This document shows, piece by piece, positions 25,801 to 50,680 of a DNA stretch of 64,000 bases. The stretch is taken from assembly GCA_024763075.1 (NCBI GenBank), contig JANTGF010000004.1, forward strand, positions 10,755 through 74,754. The letters are read 5' to 3'. The stretch's first letter is position 1; each line of letters begins with the position of its first letter. The translations under genes were made by a program, and so were the position numbers. The notes under the pieces are model-generated. The model was not told the origin of the DNA, did no database searches, and worked only from the letters and a program-made list of their open reading frames with translations. The DNA comes from Bacteroidales bacterium. Its GTDB lineage: Bacteria > Bacteroidota > Bacteroidia > Bacteroidales > VadinHA17.

Positions 25801-25879
25801 GTTTGTTGCTACTCCTATTGTTTATGATACAATTAAAAAAGCTGAAACAACGCGTGTGTTGAAAGGAAAACGGAGGTAG
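22877..25879 (+). CDS. secDF: Fused protein translocase SecDF
   Basis: LGLDLKGG, VELPGV, GPSLG, LTLPGIAG.VLTIGMSVDANVLIYER, VDFTGG, GYSVNDTVVVFDRIRE. Confidence 0.98.
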   Translation: MRNKGAILFLIVTVTIVIIYHLSFTVVTSLVKKDAAVYAGGDLVKESNYLDSIASLTKDEWSYLGNTYRECQEKEINLGLDLKGGMNVILEISVVDIIKSLSNYSTDTTFVKALNLAQAYQKNSQEDFVTLFGRAFEEVDPNARLAAIFNTIELKSKIDFNSTNQDVLNVIRDETESAISNSFNILESRINRFGVAQPSIQRIGNQGRIMVELPGVKDPERVRKLLQGTANLEFWETYENSEVSQYLMQANTKLKSILGTSQAKDTTSATEVAGTDETKTETADTSKSLLDMIEADSTKQPEETQDISKFKEENPLFAVLYPNTTRDGQFVPGSVVGFSHYRDTALVNKYLNMEQIHAIFPRDLKFVWHWKPYKYDETQNLFELHAIKVTTRDGRAPLDGDVITAAREEYDQTTGDAQVSMNMSTEGAKTWARMTRENVGRCIAIVLDGYVRSAPRVNQEIKGGSSQITGDFTITEAQDLANILKSGKLPAPAKIAQETIVGPSLGKEAIQAGLNSFLIAFVIVLLYMIFYYSHRAGTVADIALVANMFFLMGVLASLGAVLTLPGIAGIVLTIGMSVDANVLIYERIKEELLAGKGIKLAIKEGYKNANSAIIDANVTTLITGAILFFFGTGPIKGFATTLVIGILTSLFSAIFITRIIFEKLLDKNAKFSFSTKLTENAFKNAHIKFIEKRKIFYVVSGSLVIISLIALFTRGLNQSVDFTGGRTYVVRFQEPHSTVEVQGLLRDAFGEAPEVKVFGNDRQLKITTQYLIDESEADDQVEEKLYEGLKPILGPDVSKETFLSDYRESSQTVGPTIADDIKVRAVWVIGLALIFMFIYIVIRFRNWQFGMGAILALMHDSLIVLGIFSLADGFLPFSLEIDQAFVAAILTVVGYSVNDTVVVFDRIREYVGLYRKRERSEILNLALNSTLSRTVSTSLSTFVVLLTIFIFGGEVIRGFTFALMVGVVVGTYSSLFVATPIVYDTIKKAETTRVLKGKRR

Positions 25880-25907
25880 TAAAAGAATTTACCATTAAAT
25901 ATTTAAT

Positions 25908-25941
25908 AACCCTGCATTAAGTTTTTGTGCAGGGTTTTTTT
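25908..25941 (+). terminator. Intrinsic terminator after secDF
   Basis: AACCCTGCA...TGCAGGGTT followed by a T-run. Confidence 0.8.
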
Positions 25942-25999
25942 ATTCCCTCTAACTTTCGTAAATTCGCAGAGGATAATTAAGGATTTAAGTTACAGAAAA

Positions 26000-41358: not shown

Positions 41359-43530
41359 ATGAGAACATTATTATTTTCTTTTTTGCTCTTTATTAGTATT
41401 GAAGCTTTTTCAACCAATTATTATGTTGATTCAAGTGCAACAGGTGCTAACGACGGCACCAGTTGGGTAAATGCATTTGACAGCCTGCACATGGCACTTG
41501 CTGTGGCTGTAGATGCAGATACCATTTTTGTTGCTGAAGGTACTTACCGACCTGCGAATGGAACTGACAGGACGAAGTATTTTGTAATGCCCTCCGGTGT
41601 GAAATTGCTGGGAGGATATCCTTCCGGAGGAGGATGGCCAATGGTGGATGAGCATAAAACCATTCTGTCAGGTGACATAGGTGTGCTGAATGATGACAGC
41701 GACAATACCTATCATGTTATATTCTGTAACATGACCAACCCCCAAACAGAAATAGCACGCTTTTATATTACCGGTGGATATGCGGATGGAGATGGGGATG
41801 ACAGCAAAGGAGGTGGAATTGCCGTGAAGACAAATTCTTCCAGATATTACGGAGTATCAATCCGGGACTGTCGTGTATATGGGAACTATGCCAAATATGG
41901 TGGCGGGATTGACATCACACGGAAAGGGGATATTTTCAATTCGATTATCGAAAACAACCGGTGTCTTGTTTCAGGTGGGGGGTTGTACATAAATACAGAT
42001 GGAAGGGCATATAATACGATTATTCGGAATAATTATTCCGCCGGTACGGGTGGTGGTGTATATATCGGAGGATTCAATCTGGCCCCGGGGCTTGTAAATT
42101 GTTTAATTGCCAACAATGAGTCTGTAAGTTTCGGGAGTGGGATAGATCAGTATGAATCTTATGTAATCAACTGTACTATTGTTAATAATAAAGGTCCCGG
42201 AGGGGTCTATCAGAGTTCGATTTATTCAATAATGAGAAATTCTGTGATATGGGGGAACAAACCGTATCAGGTTCAAAATCCGGTTCTTTCAAAATTTGAC
42301 CATTGTGCGATTGCCGATCCGGATGTGGATTTTTCCTCCACAACCAATTTTTATATTGATACATTAAATGCAGGGTTGACGGATACGGTTAATTATCCTT
42401 ATTTTCGTTCTCCGGCAGATTCAGTTGGAAATGTTTCTACTCCTGAGGGATTGCAAAATATGAAGGAAGCAGACTGGTATATTGATCCCGGATCTGCCTG
42501 TATCAACGCAGGGGATAAAGATCTCTATCCTGCTGCTGCTCCCGCATATGACCTTTTGGATAATCCGAGAATAATTCTTGACACCATTGACATTGGGGTC
42601 TCCGAAGCTTTGATTGATGTAAGCACTGACACTGCAATTGTTATTGATGACAGGGTAAATCTTTACGGCACTGTTCTTTTTTCCATTGATCTCAACTTAA
42701 CCAAAAGAGGTTTTCTTTGGGGGGACAGTCCGGATAACATGGATCATAATATTGAAAATTCTACAAGTGGTTGGTACCGGTTTATGGATACAATACAGCA
42801 AATGCCCTCGCCTGGTATTTATTATTACCGTGCCTGGGGTATGGTTGGACCAAAGATATATCGTGCCCCCGTGAGGAGTTTTGTGGTTTGCTCAAGTGAT
42901 ACTTCTTTTGAAAACGTCCGGATATGCAAAGGAGAAAGTTATACATTTCCTGATGGAAGTACCTGGGACAACATATCTGCCGATGGAGAATATATCAGTT
43001 ATCTTTCTTCACAAACAGGATGTGACAGCCTTGTGATGACCAGTATCAGTGTCAGTGTGATAGATACATCTGTTAGCATTGACGGGATCATACTCACGGC
43101 TAATGCAGCGAATGCAGATTATCAATGGGTGAACTGTGATAATAATTATGAGATGATATCCGGGGCTACAGACCAGAGTTTTACTGCCTCACAAAACGGT
43201 AGTTATGCTGTGATAATCAATGAAAACAATTGCACCGATACTTCTTTTTGTTATGAGGTAACTACTGTTGGTATAAGAGAAACTGATTTTAAAGGTTCTT
43301 TTGAAATTTTCCCGAATCCGGTGAAAGACCAGTTAAATGTCAGATCAGGTGATGAAGACTTTTCCGGACAAATTGAACTTTGGAGTGTGCTGGGGAAGAT
43401 GGTTTACAGCCTGGGGGTGAAGGATGCCCGCACCATAAATATTTCCATGCCTGGTTTCAGGCCTGGAGTGTATTTTCTGAAAATACATGGGGAAAAGGAA
43501 ACGGCTGTATTCAGGATTCTGAAAGAATAA
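41359..43530 (+). CDS. T9SS type-A cargo: right-handed beta-helix (pectin-lyase-like / choice-of-anchor Q) protein
   Basis: YVD..ATG.NDGTSW.NAF, I.VAEGTYRP, GGG..N repeats, S.CINAG, D.L.NPRI...IDIG..E; CTD IFPNPV...G.YFLKI; TATATTTG box at 41296-41303. Confidence 0.9.
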   Translation: MRTLLFSFLLFISIEAFSTNYYVDSSATGANDGTSWVNAFDSLHMALAVAVDADTIFVAEGTYRPANGTDRTKYFVMPSGVKLLGGYPSGGGWPMVDEHKTILSGDIGVLNDDSDNTYHVIFCNMTNPQTEIARFYITGGYADGDGDDSKGGGIAVKTNSSRYYGVSIRDCRVYGNYAKYGGGIDITRKGDIFNSIIENNRCLVSGGGLYINTDGRAYNTIIRNNYSAGTGGGVYIGGFNLAPGLVNCLIANNESVSFGSGIDQYESYVINCTIVNNKGPGGVYQSSIYSIMRNSVIWGNKPYQVQNPVLSKFDHCAIADPDVDFSSTTNFYIDTLNAGLTDTVNYPYFRSPADSVGNVSTPEGLQNMKEADWYIDPGSACINAGDKDLYPAAAPAYDLLDNPRIILDTIDIGVSEALIDVSTDTAIVIDDRVNLYGTVLFSIDLNLTKRGFLWGDSPDNMDHNIENSTSGWYRFMDTIQQMPSPGIYYYRAWGMVGPKIYRAPVRSFVVCSSDTSFENVRICKGESYTFPDGSTWDNISADGEYISYLSSQTGCDSLVMTSISVSVIDTSVSIDGIILTANAANADYQWVNCDNNYEMISGATDQSFTASQNGSYAVIINENNCTDTSFCYEVTTVGIRETDFKGSFEIFPNPVKDQLNVRSGDEDFSGQIELWSVLGKMVYSLGVKDARTINISMPGFRPGVYFLKIHGEKETAVFRILKE

Positions 43531-43583
43531 TCTGTTATGTTGTATGCTTTTTTTAAATTACACCAAGAAATAGAAAAAATGTC

Positions 43584-43614
43584 TTTGATATTTGAAATAC
43601 ATTCTTTTACTTTG
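43584..43614 (+). promoter_or_regulatory. Putative trp operon promoter (-33 TTTG / -7-like TTACTTTG)
   Basis: TTTG at 43584, 19-nt spacer, imperfect -7 box just upstream of leader 1. Confidence 0.45.
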
Positions 43615-43632
43615 CAATGCAAACGAAAAGAA

Positions 43633-43692
43633 ATGCACAAGAATTCAAATAAAAACTGGTGGTGGCACAACGATTTTGACCAAACGTTGTGA
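43633..43692 (+). CDS. trpL: trp leader peptide 1 (MHKNSNKNWWWHNDFDQTL)
   Basis: 19-aa ORF with TGG TGG TGG upstream of trpE, followed by a terminator. Confidence 0.88.
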   Translation: MHKNSNKNWWWHNDFDQTL

Positions 43693-43714
43693 TAAGGCCT
43701 GTATATAATAATCT

Positions 43715-43746
43715 AAAAGCCTGTTGTGATCACAACAGGCTTTTTT
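43715..43746 (+). terminator. Attenuator terminator 1
   Basis: Perfect palindrome AAAAGCCTGTTGTGATCACAACAGGCTTTT plus TT. Confidence 0.9.
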
Positions 43747-43773
43747 AATGAAAGAGATAAATTATCAGAACTT

Positions 43774-43848
43774 ATGAGTAAAATATTAAACATACGGATC
43801 ATTTCAGGAAAAATGTCAGCATGGTGGTGGCAATGGAATGGAACATAA
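43774..43848 (+). CDS. trpL: trp leader peptide 2 (MSKILNIRIISGKMSAWWWQWNGT)
   Basis: 24-aa ORF (alternative ATG at 43813) with WWWQW, followed by a second terminator. Confidence 0.85.
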   Translation: MSKILNIRIISGKMSAWWWQWNGT

Positions 43849-43880
43849 ATTTAATGGGTGAAAACGGAAAAAGATGCACT

Positions 43881-43921
43881 AAGAGCGGCTTCCGGACACC
43901 CGGAAGCCGCTCTTTGGTTTT
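43881..43921 (+). terminator. Attenuator terminator 2
   Basis: AAGAGCGGCTTCCGG-acac-CCGGAAGCCGCTCTT then TGGTTTT (interrupted U-tract). Confidence 0.8.
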
Positions 43922-43955
43922 AAGAATATAGTTTTAGACTTTTATATTTACACAA

Positions 43956-45359
43956 ATGAAAAACTACTATTTTAAAATAAACACAAAAGAAATACTGGCA
44001 GACATCCTGACTCCTGTGGCAGTTTACCTTAAACTCAGGGATGTCTTTCCAAATTCAATTCTTCTGGAAGGGGCTGACTTTAAAGCAGGTGAAAATCAAT
44101 ATTCCTTTATTTGCCTGCAAGCCCTGGCAGGAGTTAAAGCTACCGGAAATATGCTGGAAACAAGATTTCCGGATGGACAACATGAAAAAATTGAGATGAC
44201 AAATCACAGGGAGGTTACGGATGTTTTAAGTGAGTATGCAAAAGTTTTTGTACCTGAAGAAGACATCAGCCATCTTCCTGCTACCGGACTTTTTGGCTAT
44301 TCAACTTATGAGGCGGTTACCTATTTTGAAGACATTCAGTTAAAAAGACCGGATAAAAACATGGTAATTCCGGATTTGTATTACCAGTTCTATAAATACA
44401 TTGTAGCTTTTAACCACACAAGCAATAAGATCATGCTCATTGAGCATCTGTTCAATGAGGATGCTTCCGGACTGCAATTTATTGAGGATCAGTTATTCAA
44501 TCGAACTTTTGCAGTATATCCCTTTCATCCGGTAAACGGGGAAACTTCCAATCTGACGGATGAAGAGTACAAAAATATAGTTACCAAAGGAAAACAACAC
44601 TGCCTGCGGGGAGATGTGTTTCAGATAGTATTATCACGGAGTTTTAGCCAGCAGTTTACCGGAGATGAATTTAATGTTTACCGTGCACTACGTTCAATTA
44701 ATCCTTCTCCCTACCTGTTTTATTTTGATTTTGGGAATTTTAAATTGTTTGGATCTTCTCCGGAAGCCCAGTTAAAGACCGGTTATGGAAAGGCACATAT
44801 CAACCCGATTGCAGGTACTTTTATGCGAACAGGGAATGATAAAGAAGACAGGGAGCTGGCGAAAAAATTATCGCTGGATCCTAAAGAAAACAGTGAGCAT
44901 GTAATGTTGGTCGATCTTGCCAGGAACGACCTGAGTCGAAATGCCGATGAAGTAAAACTAAATTATTTCAGAGAAATCCATTACTACTCTCATGTTTTGC
45001 ATATGGTTTCTGAAGTGGAAGGGAAGATTAGAGAAGGTACGGATCCTATACGGATTTATGCCGATACTTTTCCGGCAGGAACTTTATCAGGGGCACCAAA
45101 ATACAGGGCTATGGAACTGATTGATAAATATGAAAACCAGGCCCGTGGATTTTACGGAGGTTGTATTGGAATTATTGGCTTAGAAGGAAAAATTAACCTG
45201 GCTATTACCATACGTTCATTCATGAGTAAAGACAATACACTGCATTATCAGGCGGGAGCCGGGATTGTTGCAGAATCCTCTGAGGAAAGTGAGCTAAAAG
45301 AAGTAAAAAATAAACTGGCAGCACTGAAGAAAGCCATTGTTGAAGCAACTGAAATTTGA
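43956..45359 (+). CDS. trpE: Anthranilate synthase component I
   Basis: D.LTPV, GDVFQIVLSR, LRSINPSPY, SSPE, PIAGT, EH.MLVDLARND, PAGTLSGAPK, QAGAGIV. Confidence 0.97.
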   Translation: MKNYYFKINTKEILADILTPVAVYLKLRDVFPNSILLEGADFKAGENQYSFICLQALAGVKATGNMLETRFPDGQHEKIEMTNHREVTDVLSEYAKVFVPEEDISHLPATGLFGYSTYEAVTYFEDIQLKRPDKNMVIPDLYYQFYKYIVAFNHTSNKIMLIEHLFNEDASGLQFIEDQLFNRTFAVYPFHPVNGETSNLTDEEYKNIVTKGKQHCLRGDVFQIVLSRSFSQQFTGDEFNVYRALRSINPSPYLFYFDFGNFKLFGSSPEAQLKTGYGKAHINPIAGTFMRTGNDKEDRELAKKLSLDPKENSEHVMLVDLARNDLSRNADEVKLNYFREIHYYSHVLHMVSEVEGKIREGTDPIRIYADTFPAGTLSGAPKYRAMELIDKYENQARGFYGGCIGIIGLEGKINLAITIRSFMSKDNTLHYQAGAGIVAESSEESELKEVKNKLAALKKAIVEATEI

Positions 45360-45386
45360 AATGTTTAGTCATAATAAATATAACCA

Positions 45387-45959
45387 ATGAAAAAAATTTT
45401 AGTGATCGATAATTACGATTCGTTTACCTATAACCTTGTTCATTACATAAAGGATGTTACAGGGGAACTTCCGGATGTATTCAGAAATGATAAAATTACC
45501 GCCGGAGAAGCCAGGGAATACGACAAGATTTTACTATCTCCAGGACCGGGGATCCCGGATGAGGCGGGTAATCTTAAAGACATTATTAAACAGTGTGCTC
45601 CCCAAAAGAGTATGTTTGGTGTTTGTCTTGGTTTACAGGCAATTGCTGAGGTATTTGGCGGTACTTTGTACAATATGAATAGGGTTTATCACGGAGTTTC
45701 ATCGCCCATTATTATAACCAAAGAGAAAGATCCGGTTTTTGAAGGTATGCCTAAAGTTTTTGAAGGGGCCCGTTATCATTCATGGATAGTGAACCGGGAA
45801 GGGCTGCCTCAAACACTGAAAGTAACTGCCATTGATGAGGAGGCACAGATCATGGCGCTGAAACATACGGAGTTTGATGTGAAAGGGGTGCAATTTCACC
45901 CGGAGTCTATTTTAACCGAGAATGGAGCCAGAATCATTGAAAACTGGATAAATAACTAG
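45387..45959 (+). CDS. trpG: Anthranilate synthase component II (glutamine amidotransferase)
   Basis: IDNYDSFTYNL, SPGPG, GVCLG, RYHS, QFHPES. Confidence 0.97.
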   Translation: MKKILVIDNYDSFTYNLVHYIKDVTGELPDVFRNDKITAGEAREYDKILLSPGPGIPDEAGNLKDIIKQCAPQKSMFGVCLGLQAIAEVFGGTLYNMNRVYHGVSSPIIITKEKDPVFEGMPKVFEGARYHSWIVNREGLPQTLKVTAIDEEAQIMALKHTEFDVKGVQFHPESILTENGARIIENWINN

Positions 45960-45985
45960 AAAAAACAAACCTAAAATCACTTACC

Positions 45986-46990
45986 ATGACGGAAATGCGA
46001 CAAATAATTACCCATTTATCTGCGCACAAAACTTTAACCAGGGAAGAGGCGAGGAAGATACTTTCAGATATTGCCAATGGAATATACGATGAAGTGGAGA
46101 TGGCTTCTTTCATGACTATCTTTCTGATGCGGAGTGTTACTGTGGAAGAGCTTTCGGGGTTCAGGGATGCACTCCTGGAGCATTGCCTGCAGGTTGATCT
46201 GGCCTGCGATTCCCTGATTGATCTTTGTGGTACAGGAGGAGACGGGAAGGATACCTTTAACATTTCCACACTGGCGTCTTTTGTAACTGCCGGTGCCGGA
46301 GCTAAAGTTGCCAAACACGGTAATTATGGCGTTTCTTCTACCTGTGGTTCCTCAAATATTCTGGAGTTTTTCGGTTACCGGTTTACAAACAATCAGGATA
46401 ATCTCAGGAAACAGATTGAAAAAGCCGGAATTTGCTTTTTGCATGCCCCCCTGTTTAATCCGGCTATGAAAAATGTCGCCCCTGTCAGGAGAGGGCTCAG
46501 GGTAAAAACCTTTTTTAATATGCTGGGACCAATGGTAAATCCTGCCTTTCCACAAAAACAACTGGTGGGTGTTTTCAGCCTGGAGCTGGCACGTATTTAC
46601 AGCTATATTTATCAACAAACCGAAAAGGATTTTGTAATTATCCATAGTCTGGACGGGTATGATGAAATATCCCTGACCGGTGAATTTAAAATGATTAGCA
46701 ATAAAAAGGAACAATTAATTGATCCGGAACAGCTGGGATTGGAAAAGGCAAGAGCAGAGGATATAAAAGGTGGATCAACAATAAATGAATCTGCAGATAT
46801 TTTCAAAAAGATTCTGGAGGGGAATGGCACACCTTCACAGCAAAGTGTTGTTGCCGTAAATGCTGCCTACGCTTTGCAATGTTATTTTGAAAAAGATTTG
46901 GAAGAATGCCTGGCCATGGCGAATGAATCGATAAACAGTGGGAAAGCGAAACAGGCTTTTGAAAAATTAATAGAAGTATCGAATAGTTAA
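45986..46990 (+). CDS. trpD: Anthranilate phosphoribosyltransferase
   Basis: D.CGTGGDG..TFNIST, AKHGN..VSS..GS, DGYDE. Confidence 0.97.
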   Translation: MTEMRQIITHLSAHKTLTREEARKILSDIANGIYDEVEMASFMTIFLMRSVTVEELSGFRDALLEHCLQVDLACDSLIDLCGTGGDGKDTFNISTLASFVTAGAGAKVAKHGNYGVSSTCGSSNILEFFGYRFTNNQDNLRKQIEKAGICFLHAPLFNPAMKNVAPVRRGLRVKTFFNMLGPMVNPAFPQKQLVGVFSLELARIYSYIYQQTEKDFVIIHSLDGYDEISLTGEFKMISNKKEQLIDPEQLGLEKARAEDIKGGSTINESADIFKKILEGNGTPSQQSVVAVNAAYALQCYFEKDLEECLAMANESINSGKAKQAFEKLIEVSNS

Positions 46991-46999
46991 GTGAAGGAG

Positions 47000-47788
47000 A
47001 TGGAAAATACAATTCTTAATGAAATCATCCTGAGCAAGCAGAAGGAAGTGGAACTATTAAAAACTTCTGTTCCGATGAAGATGCTGTTGAAAAAGCAAAG
47101 AACCCGGGGGCATTTCTCCATAAAGGAGTTTTTATCGAAAATAGGTGCAAGCGGGATTATTGCAGAGTTCAAGCGCAGGTCTCCTTCCAGGGGCTGGATA
47201 AACAAAGAAGCAGAACCTGCTATTGTATTACCTGCCTATCAAGAGGCCGGGGCAAGTGCGGTGAGCATATTGACGGATCATCATTTTTTTGGAGGCAGTC
47301 TCTCTGACCTGGAGCTGGCAGGTGAACAAATTGATTTACCTGTTTTGAGAAAGGATTTTATTATTGACGAATATCAGATTGTTGAGGCGGCAATTGCAGG
47401 GGCAGATGTCATCCTCTTAATTGCTGCAAACCTGTCCACCGGAATGGTAATGCAGCTGGCTAATACGGCAAAACAACTTCAACTGGAGGTGCTGCTTGAG
47501 ATTCATAATCAGGAAGAACTCGGCCATATTTGTGAGGATGTCGACCTGGTTGGTGTGAATAACAGGAATTTGCATACTTTTAAAACAGAATTACAAACCT
47601 CCGTAGATCTGAGTACAAAAATCCCTGATCAATTTATGAAAATATCTGAAAGTGGCATTGATCATCCGGATGATATTAAGTTTTTAAAAAAACATGGTTA
47701 TAAGGGATTTCTGATAGGAGAACGTTTTATGAAAACAAATAATCCCGGAGGAGCGTGTGGTAAGTTTGTAAAAGAATTGGGTCCATGA
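47000..47788 (+). CDS. trpC: Indole-3-glycerol-phosphate synthase
   Basis: IIAEFKRRSPS.G, LRKDFII, GVNNRNL, ISESGI, FLIGE; start either ATG 47000 or GTG 46991. Confidence 0.97.
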   Translation: MENTILNEIILSKQKEVELLKTSVPMKMLLKKQRTRGHFSIKEFLSKIGASGIIAEFKRRSPSRGWINKEAEPAIVLPAYQEAGASAVSILTDHHFFGGSLSDLELAGEQIDLPVLRKDFIIDEYQIVEAAIAGADVILLIAANLSTGMVMQLANTAKQLQLEVLLEIHNQEELGHICEDVDLVGVNNRNLHTFKTELQTSVDLSTKIPDQFMKISESGIDHPDDIKFLKKHGYKGFLIGERFMKTNNPGGACGKFVKELGP

Positions 47789-47816
47789 GTAATAGATGAA
47801 GCATCCATGAAAAACG

Positions 47817-47900
47817 CCTGCCTGAATGAATTATTTGAGCAGGTAATGGGATGATAATAAAAGCCCCCGGTGGGGCGTGATGTATATAACCAGGGCTTTT
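47817..47900. repeat. Cluster of small GC-rich hairpins (REP-like) in the trpC-trpF spacer
   Basis: CCTGC...GCAGG (47817-47843); GCCCC-cggt-GGGGC (47863-47876); AAAAGCCC/GGGCTTTT (47859-47900). Confidence 0.45.
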
Positions 47901-48039
47901 AAGTAGGGGGGATGACAAAATATAAAACATTGACAAACTAAATGTAACAAAAATATAGGCAGGTGAAGATATATTATCTTTTAAAACTTGTTGAATTTGG
48001 GCTTGTCTTAAAATTAATTAATTATTTAATAGATTTATA

Positions 48040-48651
48040 ATGGGATTAAAGATTAAAATATGTGGAATGCGTGAAGAGGAGAACATCCTTCAGACAGATG
48101 CATTGAAACCGGATTATCTGGGTTTTATTTTTTATCCCCCTTCCCCCAGGTATATTGGTTCTGTTTCCCTTCCGGATGTGAATGCAAAAAAAGCGGGTGT
48201 GTTTGTAAATGAACCACTCCACTCCCTGCTTCAGAAGGCGGCTGTTTATAATCTTGATGTGATTCAGTTGCATGGGGAAGAGTCACCGGAGACATGTAAG
48301 GTGCTTCGTGAATTTAATTACGAGGTGTGGAAGGTTTTTAAAATAGGAGAGGATACAAATTCCGATATGGTAAAACCTTTCGAGGGACTTTGTGAGTATT
48401 TTTTATATGATACAAAGACAAACGGACATGGTGGTTCCGGAAAAAAGTTTGATTGGACAAAGCTAAATGAACTGTCATCACTGGGTCCGTTTTTGCTGAG
48501 TGGAGGCATCGGACCGGAAGATGTGGAGAGAATAAAGAATCTGAATATTGAGAATCTTGCAGGAGTAGATGTGAACAGCCGGTTTGAGGCAAGTGCTGCT
48601 GTAAAAGATATTGCAATGCTGTCAGACTTTATCAATGCAATAAGGAACTAA
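48040..48651 (+). CDS. trpF: Phosphoribosylanthranilate isomerase
   Basis: KIKICGM, GFIFY..SPR, GVFVNE, QLHGEES, GGSG..FDW, LSGGI, DVNS.FE. Confidence 0.97.
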   Translation: MGLKIKICGMREEENILQTDALKPDYLGFIFYPPSPRYIGSVSLPDVNAKKAGVFVNEPLHSLLQKAAVYNLDVIQLHGEESPETCKVLREFNYEVWKVFKIGEDTNSDMVKPFEGLCEYFLYDTKTNGHGGSGKKFDWTKLNELSSLGPFLLSGGIGPEDVERIKNLNIENLAGVDVNSRFEASAAVKDIAMLSDFINAIRN

Positions 48652-48668
48652 TAGATGAACTGTTTGTT

Positions 48669-49910
48669 ATGGATTATTTTGTAAATAAAAAAGGATATTA
48701 CGGAAAATTCGGTGGGGCTTATATTCCTGAAATGCTTTATCCGAATGTAAAAGAGCTGGAAGAGAACTATTTGAAAATTATGGAGAGTGAGGCTTTCAAA
48801 AATGAGTTTGCAAGCCTGCTTAAAAATTATGTTGGCAGGCCTTCTCCTTTGTATTACAGTGAGAGGTTATCAGGTAAATATGGAGTTAAGCTATATCTGA
48901 AAAGAGAGGACTTGAATCATACCGGCTCTCATAAAATAAATAATACCATCGGCCAGATACTGATGGCTCGTTTTCTTGGGAAGAAGAGGATTATTGCTGA
49001 AACAGGAGCCGGCCAGCATGGAGTGGCAACCGCTACGGTTTGTGCCAGGGAGGGAGTGGAATGCGTGGTTTTTATGGGTGCTACCGATGTTGCCCGCCAA
49101 AAACCCAATGTGGAGAAAATGGAAATGCTGGGTGCCACTGTAATACCGGTTGAATCGGGCAACAAAACACTTAAGGACGCGACCAATGATGCCATTCGTC
49201 ACTGGATAAGCCATCCGGATGAGACACATTATATCATAGGTTCTGTTGTGGGCCCTCATCCATACCCTGATATGGTGGCACGTTTTCAATCAGTGATTAG
49301 TAAAGAAATGCGTTCCCAGCTTAATAAACAAACGGGGTCTCCTTTACCGGACAAGATCATTGCCTGTGTGGGTGGGGGGAGTAATGCTGCAGGAGCTTTC
49401 TATCATTATCTGAACGAAAATAAAGTAGAATTGATAGCTGTTGAGGCCGATGGACTGGGTCTGGAAACCGGCCATACAGCTGCAACAACGGCAGCAGGTA
49501 CTCCGGGAATTATTCATGGAAGCATGACCTTGCTGATGCAGACCGGGGATGGACAGATCATTGAACCTTATTCTATTTCCGCCGGACTGGATTATCCAGG
49601 AATTGGTCCATTACATGCACATCTTTTTGATGTGAACAGAGCCGGGTTTTACCGGGCGACTGATCAGGAAGCTCTGGATGCTGCTTTTGAACTTACGCGT
49701 CTGGAAGGGATCATTCCTGCTCTTGAATCAGCACATGCATTGGCCGCTCTTCCAAAAATAAAATTCGGGAAAGGAGAAGTAGTTGTGGTGAATATCTCTG
49801 GTAGGGGAGACAAAGATATGGAAGCGTACAGGAAACATCTGTTAGCCGAAAAAAGGATGAAATTCAAAAAAGAAAGATTTAAATATTTATTTTGGAAATT
49901 TATAAAATGA
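48669..49910 (+). CDS. trpB: Tryptophan synthase beta chain
   Basis: LKREDLNHTGSHKINN, AETGAGQHG, GGGSNA, SAGLDYPG, GIIPALES, SGRGDKD. Confidence 0.98.
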   Translation: MDYFVNKKGYYGKFGGAYIPEMLYPNVKELEENYLKIMESEAFKNEFASLLKNYVGRPSPLYYSERLSGKYGVKLYLKREDLNHTGSHKINNTIGQILMARFLGKKRIIAETGAGQHGVATATVCAREGVECVVFMGATDVARQKPNVEKMEMLGATVIPVESGNKTLKDATNDAIRHWISHPDETHYIIGSVVGPHPYPDMVARFQSVISKEMRSQLNKQTGSPLPDKIIACVGGGSNAAGAFYHYLNENKVELIAVEADGLGLETGHTAATTAAGTPGIIHGSMTLLMQTGDGQIIEPYSISAGLDYPGIGPLHAHLFDVNRAGFYRATDQEALDAAFELTRLEGIIPALESAHALAALPKIKFGKGEVVVVNISGRGDKDMEAYRKHLLAEKRMKFKKERFKYLFWKFIK

Positions 49911-50680
49911 ACAGAATTACAGAGCTCTTCAATAAGAAAAAGAGAAACGTTCTTTCTTTCTATTTTACAGCAGGTCATCCGGAGCCGGACTCCACTCTTT
50001 CTATCCTCAAATCCCTGGAAAAAAACGGAGCAGATATGGTTGAGATCGGGATGCCGTTTTCCGATCCTCTGGCAGATGGTCCTGTGATTCAGCAAAGCAG
50101 CCAGATAGCTCTGAAAAACGGAATGACAATTAAAAAGTTGTTAGCAGCCCTTGAATCTGTCAGAGAGGAGGTTACTATTCCGCTTTTGTGTATGGGGTAT
50201 TTTAATACAGTGCTGCAGTTCGGAATGGAAAACTTTTGCAAAACAATCAGTCAAATTGGTATTGACGGGGTGATATTGCCAGATTTACCCCTGGAAGTTT
50301 ATTCGGAGAAATATCAGGCCATATTTGAAAGGTACGGCATTATCCCTGTTTTTCTGATTACTCCGGGAACTTCTGATGAACGTATCCGGCAAACTGAAAA
50401 GTATTCCAAAGGGTTTATCTATATGGTATCTTCGGCCTCGGTAACAGGAGCAAAAAAAGGCTTTGGCAATGAGCAACTTGCTTACTTTAAGCGGATAAAG
50501 GAAATGAATCTTTCAGTTCCGGTGATGGCCGGCTTTGGTATATCCGATAAATTTACCTTTAATCAGGTTTCAGATTATGCTGCCGGTGGGATTATAGGCA
50601 GTGCTTTTGTTTCTCACCTTCAAAAAGAAGGTGCTTCTGAAAATAGCATAGGGGAGTTTATAAAAAGGATTGTGAAGTAG
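49907..50680 (+). CDS. trpA: Tryptophan synthase alpha chain
   Basis: EIG.PFSDPLADGPVIQ, MGY.N, PDLP, VTG, GFGIS, GSA; ATGA overlap with trpB. Confidence 0.97.
   Translation: MNRITELFNKKKRNVLSFYFTAGHPEPDSTLSILKSLEKNGADMVEIGMPFSDPLADGPVIQQSSQIALKNGMTIKKLLAALESVREEVTIPLLCMGYFNTVLQFGMENFCKTISQIGIDGVILPDLPLEVYSEKYQAIFERYGIIPVFLITPGTSDERIRQTEKYSKGFIYMVSSASVTGAKKGFGNEQLAYFKRIKEMNLSVPVMAGFGISDKFTFNQVSDYAAGGIIGSAFVSHLQKEGASENSIGEFIKRIVK

Follow-up and report, generated by a model that had tools for sequence, protein, structure and literature searches.

Leader-peptide attenuation is a textbook mechanism that, to our knowledge, is always drawn with one sensor. The region upstream of trpE in the Bacteroidales bacterium studied here raises the question of whether a single trp operon can be governed by two such sensors, placed one after the other and reading the same signal. 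A sequence-only reading of this DNA had proposed two tryptophan-rich leader ORFs, each with its own terminator. We examined the locus within its window, i.e., the whole 64,000-nt stretch of DNA analyzed, which, among public sequencing runs, was listed for three DNA runs of one study and for no RNA run. In our main reading, to which we assign a probability of about three in four, one transcript passes two serial ribosome-mediated Trp attenuators before reaching trpE.

All the coordinates and peptides previously given for the two Trp leaders and two terminators before trpE proved right (Table 1), and the order of the downstream operon was confirmed by Pfam (Anth_synt_I_N plus Chorismate_bind, GATase, Glycos_transf_3, IGPS, PRAI, PALP, and Trp_syntA). 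Both units combine a run of Trp codons with an intrinsic terminator lying between the leader ORF and trpE. Leader ORF 2 has an inner ATG at 43813, and the T run of terminator 1, taken with the stem's own T's, amounts to TTTTTT. The whole 336-nt leader folded better than 100/100 shuffles (z, -5.4). A search of the whole 4.59-Mb genome for short ORFs with residue runs returned 1480 candidates, 17 of them with a terminator within 90 nt; three of these were of the W type, two being the adjacent trpE units and the third having a weak hairpin. As this pair hence accounts for the only good cases of a W-run ORF plus terminator genome-wide, its presence before trpE is not a matter of chance.

Table 1. 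Elements of the trpE leader region and downstream operon (positions in the window)
Feature	Position	Strand	Description
trpE upstream gap, 425 nt	between Por_Secre_tail-domain protein gene (41359-43530) and trpE (43956)		Five elements in order
Promoter-like site	43584..43614	+	TTTG 43584-87, 20-nt spacer, TACTTTG 43608-14
Leader ORF 1	43633..43692	+	MHKNSNKNWWWHNDFDQTL, 19 codons, WWW 43657-43665, stop TGA 43690-43692 inside region 2
Unit 1 region 1, anti-antiterminator arm	43666..43672	+	CACAACG directly 3' of the Trp codons; pairs with 43685-43691
Unit 1 region 2/antiterminator arm	43685..43698	+	CGTTGTGATAAGGC; 43686-93 with 43729-36, 43695-98 with 43719-22
Terminator 1	43715..43746	+	13-bp stem 43715-27/43732-44, 4-nt loop, T run; -17.8 kcal/mol
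Leader ORF 2	43774..43848	+	MSKILNIRIISGKMSAWWWQWNGT, 24 codons, WWWQW, W codons 43822-30 and 43834-36, stop TAA 43846-48
Unit 2 antiterminator arm	43856..43869	+	GGGTG AAAA CGGAA; pairs with CACCC 43896-43900, TTCCG 43890-94
Terminator 2	43881..43921	+	Hairpin 43881-43914, 15-bp G+C-rich stem, loop ACAC, interrupted tail TGGTTTT; -30.3 kcal/mol
Operon trpE-trpG-trpD-trpC-trpF-trpB-trpA	43956..50680	+	trpE, 43956-45359

Elsewhere in the same genome, outside the window, a 24-codon ORF (MILKVTINSCCCFCKLFRKAGLLL, with four Cys in five codons) followed by a terminator was noted at G000:C123:3633-3761 (L193 634-762). A serine-acetyltransferase-like gene (Hexapep, weak SATase_N) follows 18 nt downstream, together with a gene for a PALP enzyme; the ORF and its terminator are a candidate for a single leader-peptide attenuator of the cysteine type. 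On contig C88, short ORFs rich in F were rejected as leaders and attributed to chance, the neighboring genes being on the other strand. Within the operon, the 250-nt trpC-trpF gap (47789-48039) has no plus-strand ORF of ≥60 aa and contains a GCCCC/GGGGC hairpin without a T run.

The alternative structures of each unit were folded with and without an imposed ribosome footprint, assumed to extend from -15 to +12 nt around the A-site codon; these folds are thermodynamic snapshots of a termination decision that in reality is kinetic. In this check, which the sequence-only reading had suggested, both units switched as the model needs, and each had, in silico, an antiterminator that depends on ribosome position and excludes the terminator. 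For unit 1, the claimed choice between a 1:2 hairpin and an antiterminator was borne out. The 1:2 hairpin (CACAACG/CGTTGTG) has -7.6 kcal/mol and a duplex p of 0.012 (500 shuffles), and the antiterminator, folded intramolecularly, has -10.6 kcal/mol. The duplex of the antiterminator arm with the terminator apex reached -11.8 kcal/mol (z, -2.8; 1/200 shuffles as low) and was specific for the cognate terminator, the same arm giving only -4.0 kcal/mol with terminator 2. With a ribosome stalled on the W codons, the antiterminator was the minimum-energy fold; with no ribosome, the fold comprised the 1:2 hairpin (43666-72/43685-91) and the terminator apex. Because the 1:2 hairpin forms without a ribosome, unit 1 should terminate when untranslated, i.e., its predicted default state is off.

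The antiterminator claimed for unit 2 (GGGTG..CGGAA) also held. Its duplex had -15.4 kcal/mol (z, -4.5; 0/200 shuffles as low), compared to -6.7 kcal/mol for the same arm with terminator 1. As two bare helices it has only -0.8 kcal/mol; the addition of a small inner hairpin makes it the most stable structure of the nascent transcript (-15.2 kcal/mol, minimum-energy fold) once 5 nt of the right arm have emerged, and the nascent RNA of a canonical single unit (L034) behaved alike (-16.0 kcal/mol). An anti-antiterminator was sought in unit 2 against shuffles and none was found (p = 0.44, 0.66). With no ribosome, the antiterminator forms, there being no 1:2 partner; it was also the best fold with a ribosome stalled on the W codons, and terminator 2 can nucleate at its apex when the ribosome is at the stop codon. 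A stall on the W codons leaves the arm free; under the assumed footprint, a ribosome sitting at the stop codon hides no more than about 3 nt at the start of the arm. Lacking a 1:2 partner, unit 2 is expected to terminate solely upon arrival of a ribosome at its stop codon, i.e., its predicted default state is on. The pairings described for each unit hence hold in silico, but the logic of unit 2 is unlike that of unit 1, and in our model the two units are not equivalent, one having an anti-antiterminator and the other lacking it. The 1:2 hairpin is dispensable for some attenuators.

In both units, the terminator is far stabler than the antiterminator (-17.8 versus -10.6 kcal/mol in unit 1; -30.3 versus about -15 kcal/mol in unit 2), so that read-through depends on kinetics. 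According to the model, transcription would start near the promoter-like site, and in each unit the ribosome translating the leader would report how much charged tRNA-Trp is available. Stalling on the Trp codons would leave the segment at the stop codon or just 3' of it free to pair with the terminator loop and upper arms, resulting in read-through, whereas a ribosome at the stop codon would cover this segment, the terminator hairpin would form, and transcription would end. With unit 1 off unless translated and unit 2 on unless its leader has been read through to the stop codon in time, expression of the operon would be the product of two read-through probabilities set by the same signal, provided that both leaders are translated, both terminators work, and their effects multiply. 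Serial units would then lower the basal level and steepen the response, and may constitute the sharper, lower-leak Trp switch that had been suggested for this locus. Folding, comparison with relatives, and context conjointly support the prediction of two complete ribosome-mediated Trp attenuators in series. No match to Trp_repressor (PF01371) was found in the 96%-complete genome, in a search to which control genomes responded; since no TrpR-type repressor was found, two-stage attenuation could supply the range that E. coli achieves by repression plus attenuation.

To place both units among known designs, trpE loci were gathered from species-representative genomes, relatives of the window's genome, and metagenomes, and a family alignment was built from 86 non-redundant single-unit Bacteroidota trp leaders. 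Conserved in these leaders are the ATG, the TGG run, the terminator, and a TCGTGA segment at or just before the stop codon, complementary to the TCACGA formed by the terminator loop and the top of its 3' arm. In the resulting antiterminator helix, 75.8% of the cells were paired versus 67.8 ± 0.9 in shuffles, and 60 were double-change cells versus 22.8 ± 6.9, neither value being reached by any of 500 shuffles, with the caveat that related sequences can beat shuffles without structure. We regard the helix as real because slid registers scored lower (0.03 to 0.18 versus 0.276 for the true register) and the helix sequences visibly differ. Over 197 units, the duplex that the post-Trp segment forms with the apex of the terminator had p ≤ 0.05 in 67% (5% expected by chance), with median values of -11.3 kcal/mol for its energy and 5 nt for the distance by which the start of the arm precedes the stop codon; in the 30 tandem loci described below, pairing was better with the cognate terminator for unit 1 in 28 and for unit 2 in 20.

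The window's unit 1 conforms to the family helix with TTGTGA/TCACAA versus TCGTGA/TCACGA, i.e., a compensated C-to-T plus G-to-A change. A covariance model, R1, built solely from the 86 single-unit leaders, matched both unit 1 (43625-43752, 75.5 bits) and unit 2 (43786-43919, 30.8 bits), both of which keep a GTGA-type antiterminator core that pairs with a CAC-containing terminator loop. Based on the R1 matches and this shared GTGA/CAC core, an old duplication followed by divergence is plausible. The sequence-only reading had seen no evident shared sequence apart from the Trp codons and hence no simple recent duplication; the former has to be corrected, as the units are related, but the duplication would be an old one. 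A further R1 match, at 25824-25946, was rejected as a leader, being the terminator after a 1000-aa ORF.

How widespread the doubled layout is was addressed by a survey of related trpE leaders, also proposed by the sequence-only reading. From an input of 179 loci plus the window, 15 were dropped and 165 retained, with the TrpE N terminus and at least 400 nt upstream. Two units, each a W-ORF plus terminator, were found in 30 of the 165, one unit in 129, and none in 6, counts that are not independent because the loci are related to one another. The 30 are a lower bound, since an extra tandem in L022, whose distal unit has a GTG start, was left uncounted. A TrpE tree of 161 rows, made with FastTree, placed every one of the 30 tandem loci in one supported Bacteroidia clade of 63 rows, an adjoining clade of 76 rows having single units only, and the tandem label changed at least seven times, six of these changes being forced by starred branches. 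Among 151 genomes sampled evenly across the order, at least seven have a tandem including that of the window, six others showing adjacent same-strand pairs among the matches listed. Five of these six genomes were inspected, and each proved to have two units of W-ORF plus terminator; in four genomes the units precede trpE, in the fifth a TrpB-like PALP gene. These five verified tandem loci belong to other families of the order.

Judged by R1 score, the doubled layout exists in at least three configurations. The window and L002 combine a canonical distal unit (75.5 and 79.8 bits) with a divergent proximal one (30.8 and 55.8 bits). In the Prolixibacteraceae-type configuration, it is the proximal unit that is canonical (approximately 69 to 93 bits), and the divergent one is the distal unit, whose peptide reads ..NTIWLPWWGLLT (36 to 52 bits where reported); a related group (L003 to L008 and L111 to L115) is intermediate, both units having approximately 42 to 74 bits. 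In L084, both units are canonical (82 and 85 bits).

Several loci of these types showed features of their own. The distal units of Prolixibacteraceae- and Mariniphaga-type tandems (L009, L016 to L018, L024, and others; e.g., L009:1187-1326) contain an invariant 10-nt pair, CAATATGGCT ... AGCCATATTG, whose long-range helix encloses the Trp codons and antiterminator arm and was observed in neither unit of the window. In the Mariniphaga-type loci L004, L007, L113, and L115, the post-Trp segment of unit 2 prefers the apex of terminator 1 (-14 to -18 kcal/mol) over its own terminator, which may reflect either cross talk between the units or a side effect of sequence similarity. In L019, L014, and L121, which are nested among tandem loci, the distal unit is gone and another coding sequence ends right at the remaining leader, so that the first attenuator looks to have been lost by insertion; the inserted ORF is, we presume, reminiscent of a HepT/DUF86-type toxin. 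In L197 (G120:C71:12800-15400, minus strand), two serial Trp units precede not trpE but a TrpB-like PALP gene that stands alone, downstream of which lies a DHQ_synthase gene.

The closest TrpE relative of the window, L001 (73% identity), has a single unit, to which unit 1 is orthologous, as it is to unit 1 of L002 (71% TrpE identity): in the alignment, the ATG of leader ORF 1 coincides with the leader ATGs of both loci and terminator 1 is homologous to the terminator of L001 and to that of unit 1 in L002. Unit 2 is orthologous to unit 2 of L002 (peptide MTTNLNNTAKWWRWQNTCFMW), with a conserved antiterminator arm. In an alignment read by eye, three stem pairs of terminator 2 are changed on both sides relative to L002 and are still paired, and one pair is broken. 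In L002 itself, the unit 1 antiterminator was no better than shuffles (p = 0.22), and the unit 2 arm bound the other terminator about as well (-13.1 versus -13.9 kcal/mol). The TrpE tree is compatible either with loss of unit 2 in L001 or with its never having been present there. No closer relatives with a TrpE N terminus above 62% identity were found in a metagenome scan, L134 (76%) being devoid of the 5' end; hence, L002 has the only unit 2 orthologue in the collections searched. The TrpE of the window shares 71 to 73% identity with that of two metagenome-assembled genomes labeled Bacteroidetes bacterium and Salinivirgaceae bacterium but only 50% with that of G002, a genome of the same genus. 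Lineages may have exchanged the trp operon.

Whether the two units act on the same transcript depends on where transcription starts. The promoter-like block that precedes unit 1 resembles the -33/-7 consensus of Bacteroidota and, in the alignment, is shared by L001 and L002 as a conserved element. A motif scan found a -7-like motif upstream of unit 1 in 12 tandem loci, including the window, and none between the window's two units, where a separate promoter would, according to the sequence-only reading, speak against serial action. The distance from the end of terminator 1 (43746) to the ATG of leader ORF 2 (43774) is 27 nt, or 31 nt from the script-called hairpin end; across the 30 tandem loci, the median hairpin-to-ATG gap is 24 nt, with ≤40 nt in 21. 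Given the 27-nt gap and the lack of a promoter motif within it, the two units most likely act in series on one transcript. The possibility that terminator 1 merely ends the upstream gene was considered and rejected, as it is preceded by a promoter-like block that is conserved, by a leader with WWW, and by an antiterminator cognate to it.

A second promoter, situated between the units or after terminator 2, could still cause most trpE mRNA to bypass unit 1 or both units. Downstream of terminator 2 there are indeed a sigma-70-like match (TTAAGA, 17 nt, TATATT, at 43920-43948) and a near -7 motif (TATATTTA), and 3 of the 30 tandem loci (L003, L005, and L006) have -7-like motifs between their units. 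However, the sigma-70-type promoter scan was no richer than shuffles (5 sites versus 4.6 ± 2.2), the sequence 3' of terminator 2 is not conserved in L002, and the gap between the window's units is too short for a separate -33/-7 promoter plus untranslated leader, which makes a bypassing promoter very unlikely. Most unlikely, in our view, is that unit 1 chiefly encodes a trans-acting attenuator RNA or peptide, leaving control of the operon to unit 2. Unit 1 would give a discrete RNA of about 125 nt, and the available portions of the literature on Sinorhizobium describe such a trans-acting attenuator RNA and leader peptide, rnTrpL and peTrpL (PMC6614838, PMC7298713). Nothing here, however, indicates a trans target, and the sole attenuator of L001, which must control trpE in cis, is the orthologue of unit 1; a trans function would, besides, be compatible with cis control in series.

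There is more to be said for the idea that only one unit is a working Trp sensor and the other a copy in decay, no more than a partial terminator, or an insulator against read-through from the upstream gene, an explanation that we nonetheless consider rather unlikely. L001 has a single unit, several Prolixibacteraceae-type loci (L019, L014, and L121) have lost the distal one, unit 2 scores just 30.8 bits with the family model and has an antiterminator that is weak as bare helices, and no good terminator was found directly after the upstream secreted-protein gene, so that terminator 1 may end that transcript too. A plain terminator, however, needs no Trp run, stop codon placement, or cognate antiterminator, yet both units keep a Trp run, a stop codon beside the antiterminator arm, and an antiterminator specific for its own terminator, most of which is found in L002 as well. 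Moreover, both units are kept in 27 of the 32 loci of the type B plus C clade. These features argue for two sensors in series, our preferred reading.

Compared with the E. coli trpL type (PMC3641672, in part), the locus shares the Trp-codon leader ORF, the mutually exclusive antiterminator and terminator hairpins, the intrinsic terminator before trpE, and, in unit 1, the 1:2 anti-antiterminator. It differs in having two complete serial units, in the lack of a 1:2 hairpin in unit 2, in that no TrpR-type repressor was found, and in that the antiterminator arm pairs with the terminator loop and upper arms, not mainly the 5' arm. In Bacteroidota, a Trp-codon leader upstream of trp genes is represented by Rfam family RF01692 (Bacteroid-trp), a single-unit leader predicted in 2010 by Weinberg et al. 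(PMC2864571, in part). Its best match in the region is unit 1 (43613-43725), but at 29.3 bits, below the 49-bit cutoff, and unit 2 gave no match; nor was there any match at E ≤ 1 in 15 related loci. As a scan of positions 43000-44500 yielded only subthreshold Rfam matches (Bacteroid-trp, 29.3; Thr_leader, 29.9; trpB motif, 26.9 bits), these are unusable for classification. In the main text of that study, as far as available, "tandem" is applied only to motifs other than Bacteroid-trp.

The nearest precedent for a doubled leader is that of Salmonella mgtCBR, where, according to the sections available, tandem attenuators contain ORFs that sense ATP and proline (Lee and Groisman 2012, PMC3641672). 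As here, one leader holds two short ORFs, each of which governs a choice of RNA structures and thereby whether transcription continues into the coding region; unlike there, both ORFs here carry Trp runs and each has its own intrinsic terminator, so that the locus falls outside the mgtCBR type as defined in those sections. The same sections call mgtCBR a singular example responding to different signals, contrast it with a leader with two intrinsic terminators, and state that a biosynthetic operon is normally under a single attenuator.

Tandem T-boxes precede the trp operons of some Firmicutes. Like such T-boxes and same-signal tandem riboswitches, the present locus places two complete sensor-plus-terminator units for one signal in series; unlike them, in which RNA senses a metabolite or tRNA directly, the sensor here would be the translating ribosome. 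Tandem riboswitches have been linked to "more-digital" regulation (PMC2864571, in part), and tandem T-boxes are described as existing with modes of action unknown (PMC7583486, in part). The sequence-only reading knew of no described tandem leader-peptide trp attenuator, and our literature search, with subscription journals and supplements largely outside its scope, likewise found no natural same-signal tandem leader-peptide attenuator of any kind, the only tandem attenuators encountered being Salmonella mgtCBR and synthetic RNA circuits. Two comparative attenuator surveys make no mention of tandem leader peptides in the portions available. The single unit is of a known kind (Bacteroid-trp type), and the doubled same-signal layout is one for which no published description was found.

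A broader proposal, which we advance tentatively and at somewhat less than even odds, is that same-signal tandems are a repeatedly evolved, undescribed Bacteroidales design in which unequal stages would square the dynamic range, check transcription-translation coupling, and replace a TrpR-type repressor. As the two stages are predicted to differ in default state and several configurations exist, the family would provide a ready-made comparative series for the kinetic control of termination in Bacteroidota, a phylum whose signals for transcription and for translation are unlike those used by E. coli. In terms of annotation, Rfam's model misses these leaders. A natural, conserved same-signal pair would permit a direct test of how stacking affects leakiness, steepness, and noise, as for tandem riboswitches, and suggests how bacteria without a Trp repressor may reach a wide regulatory range.
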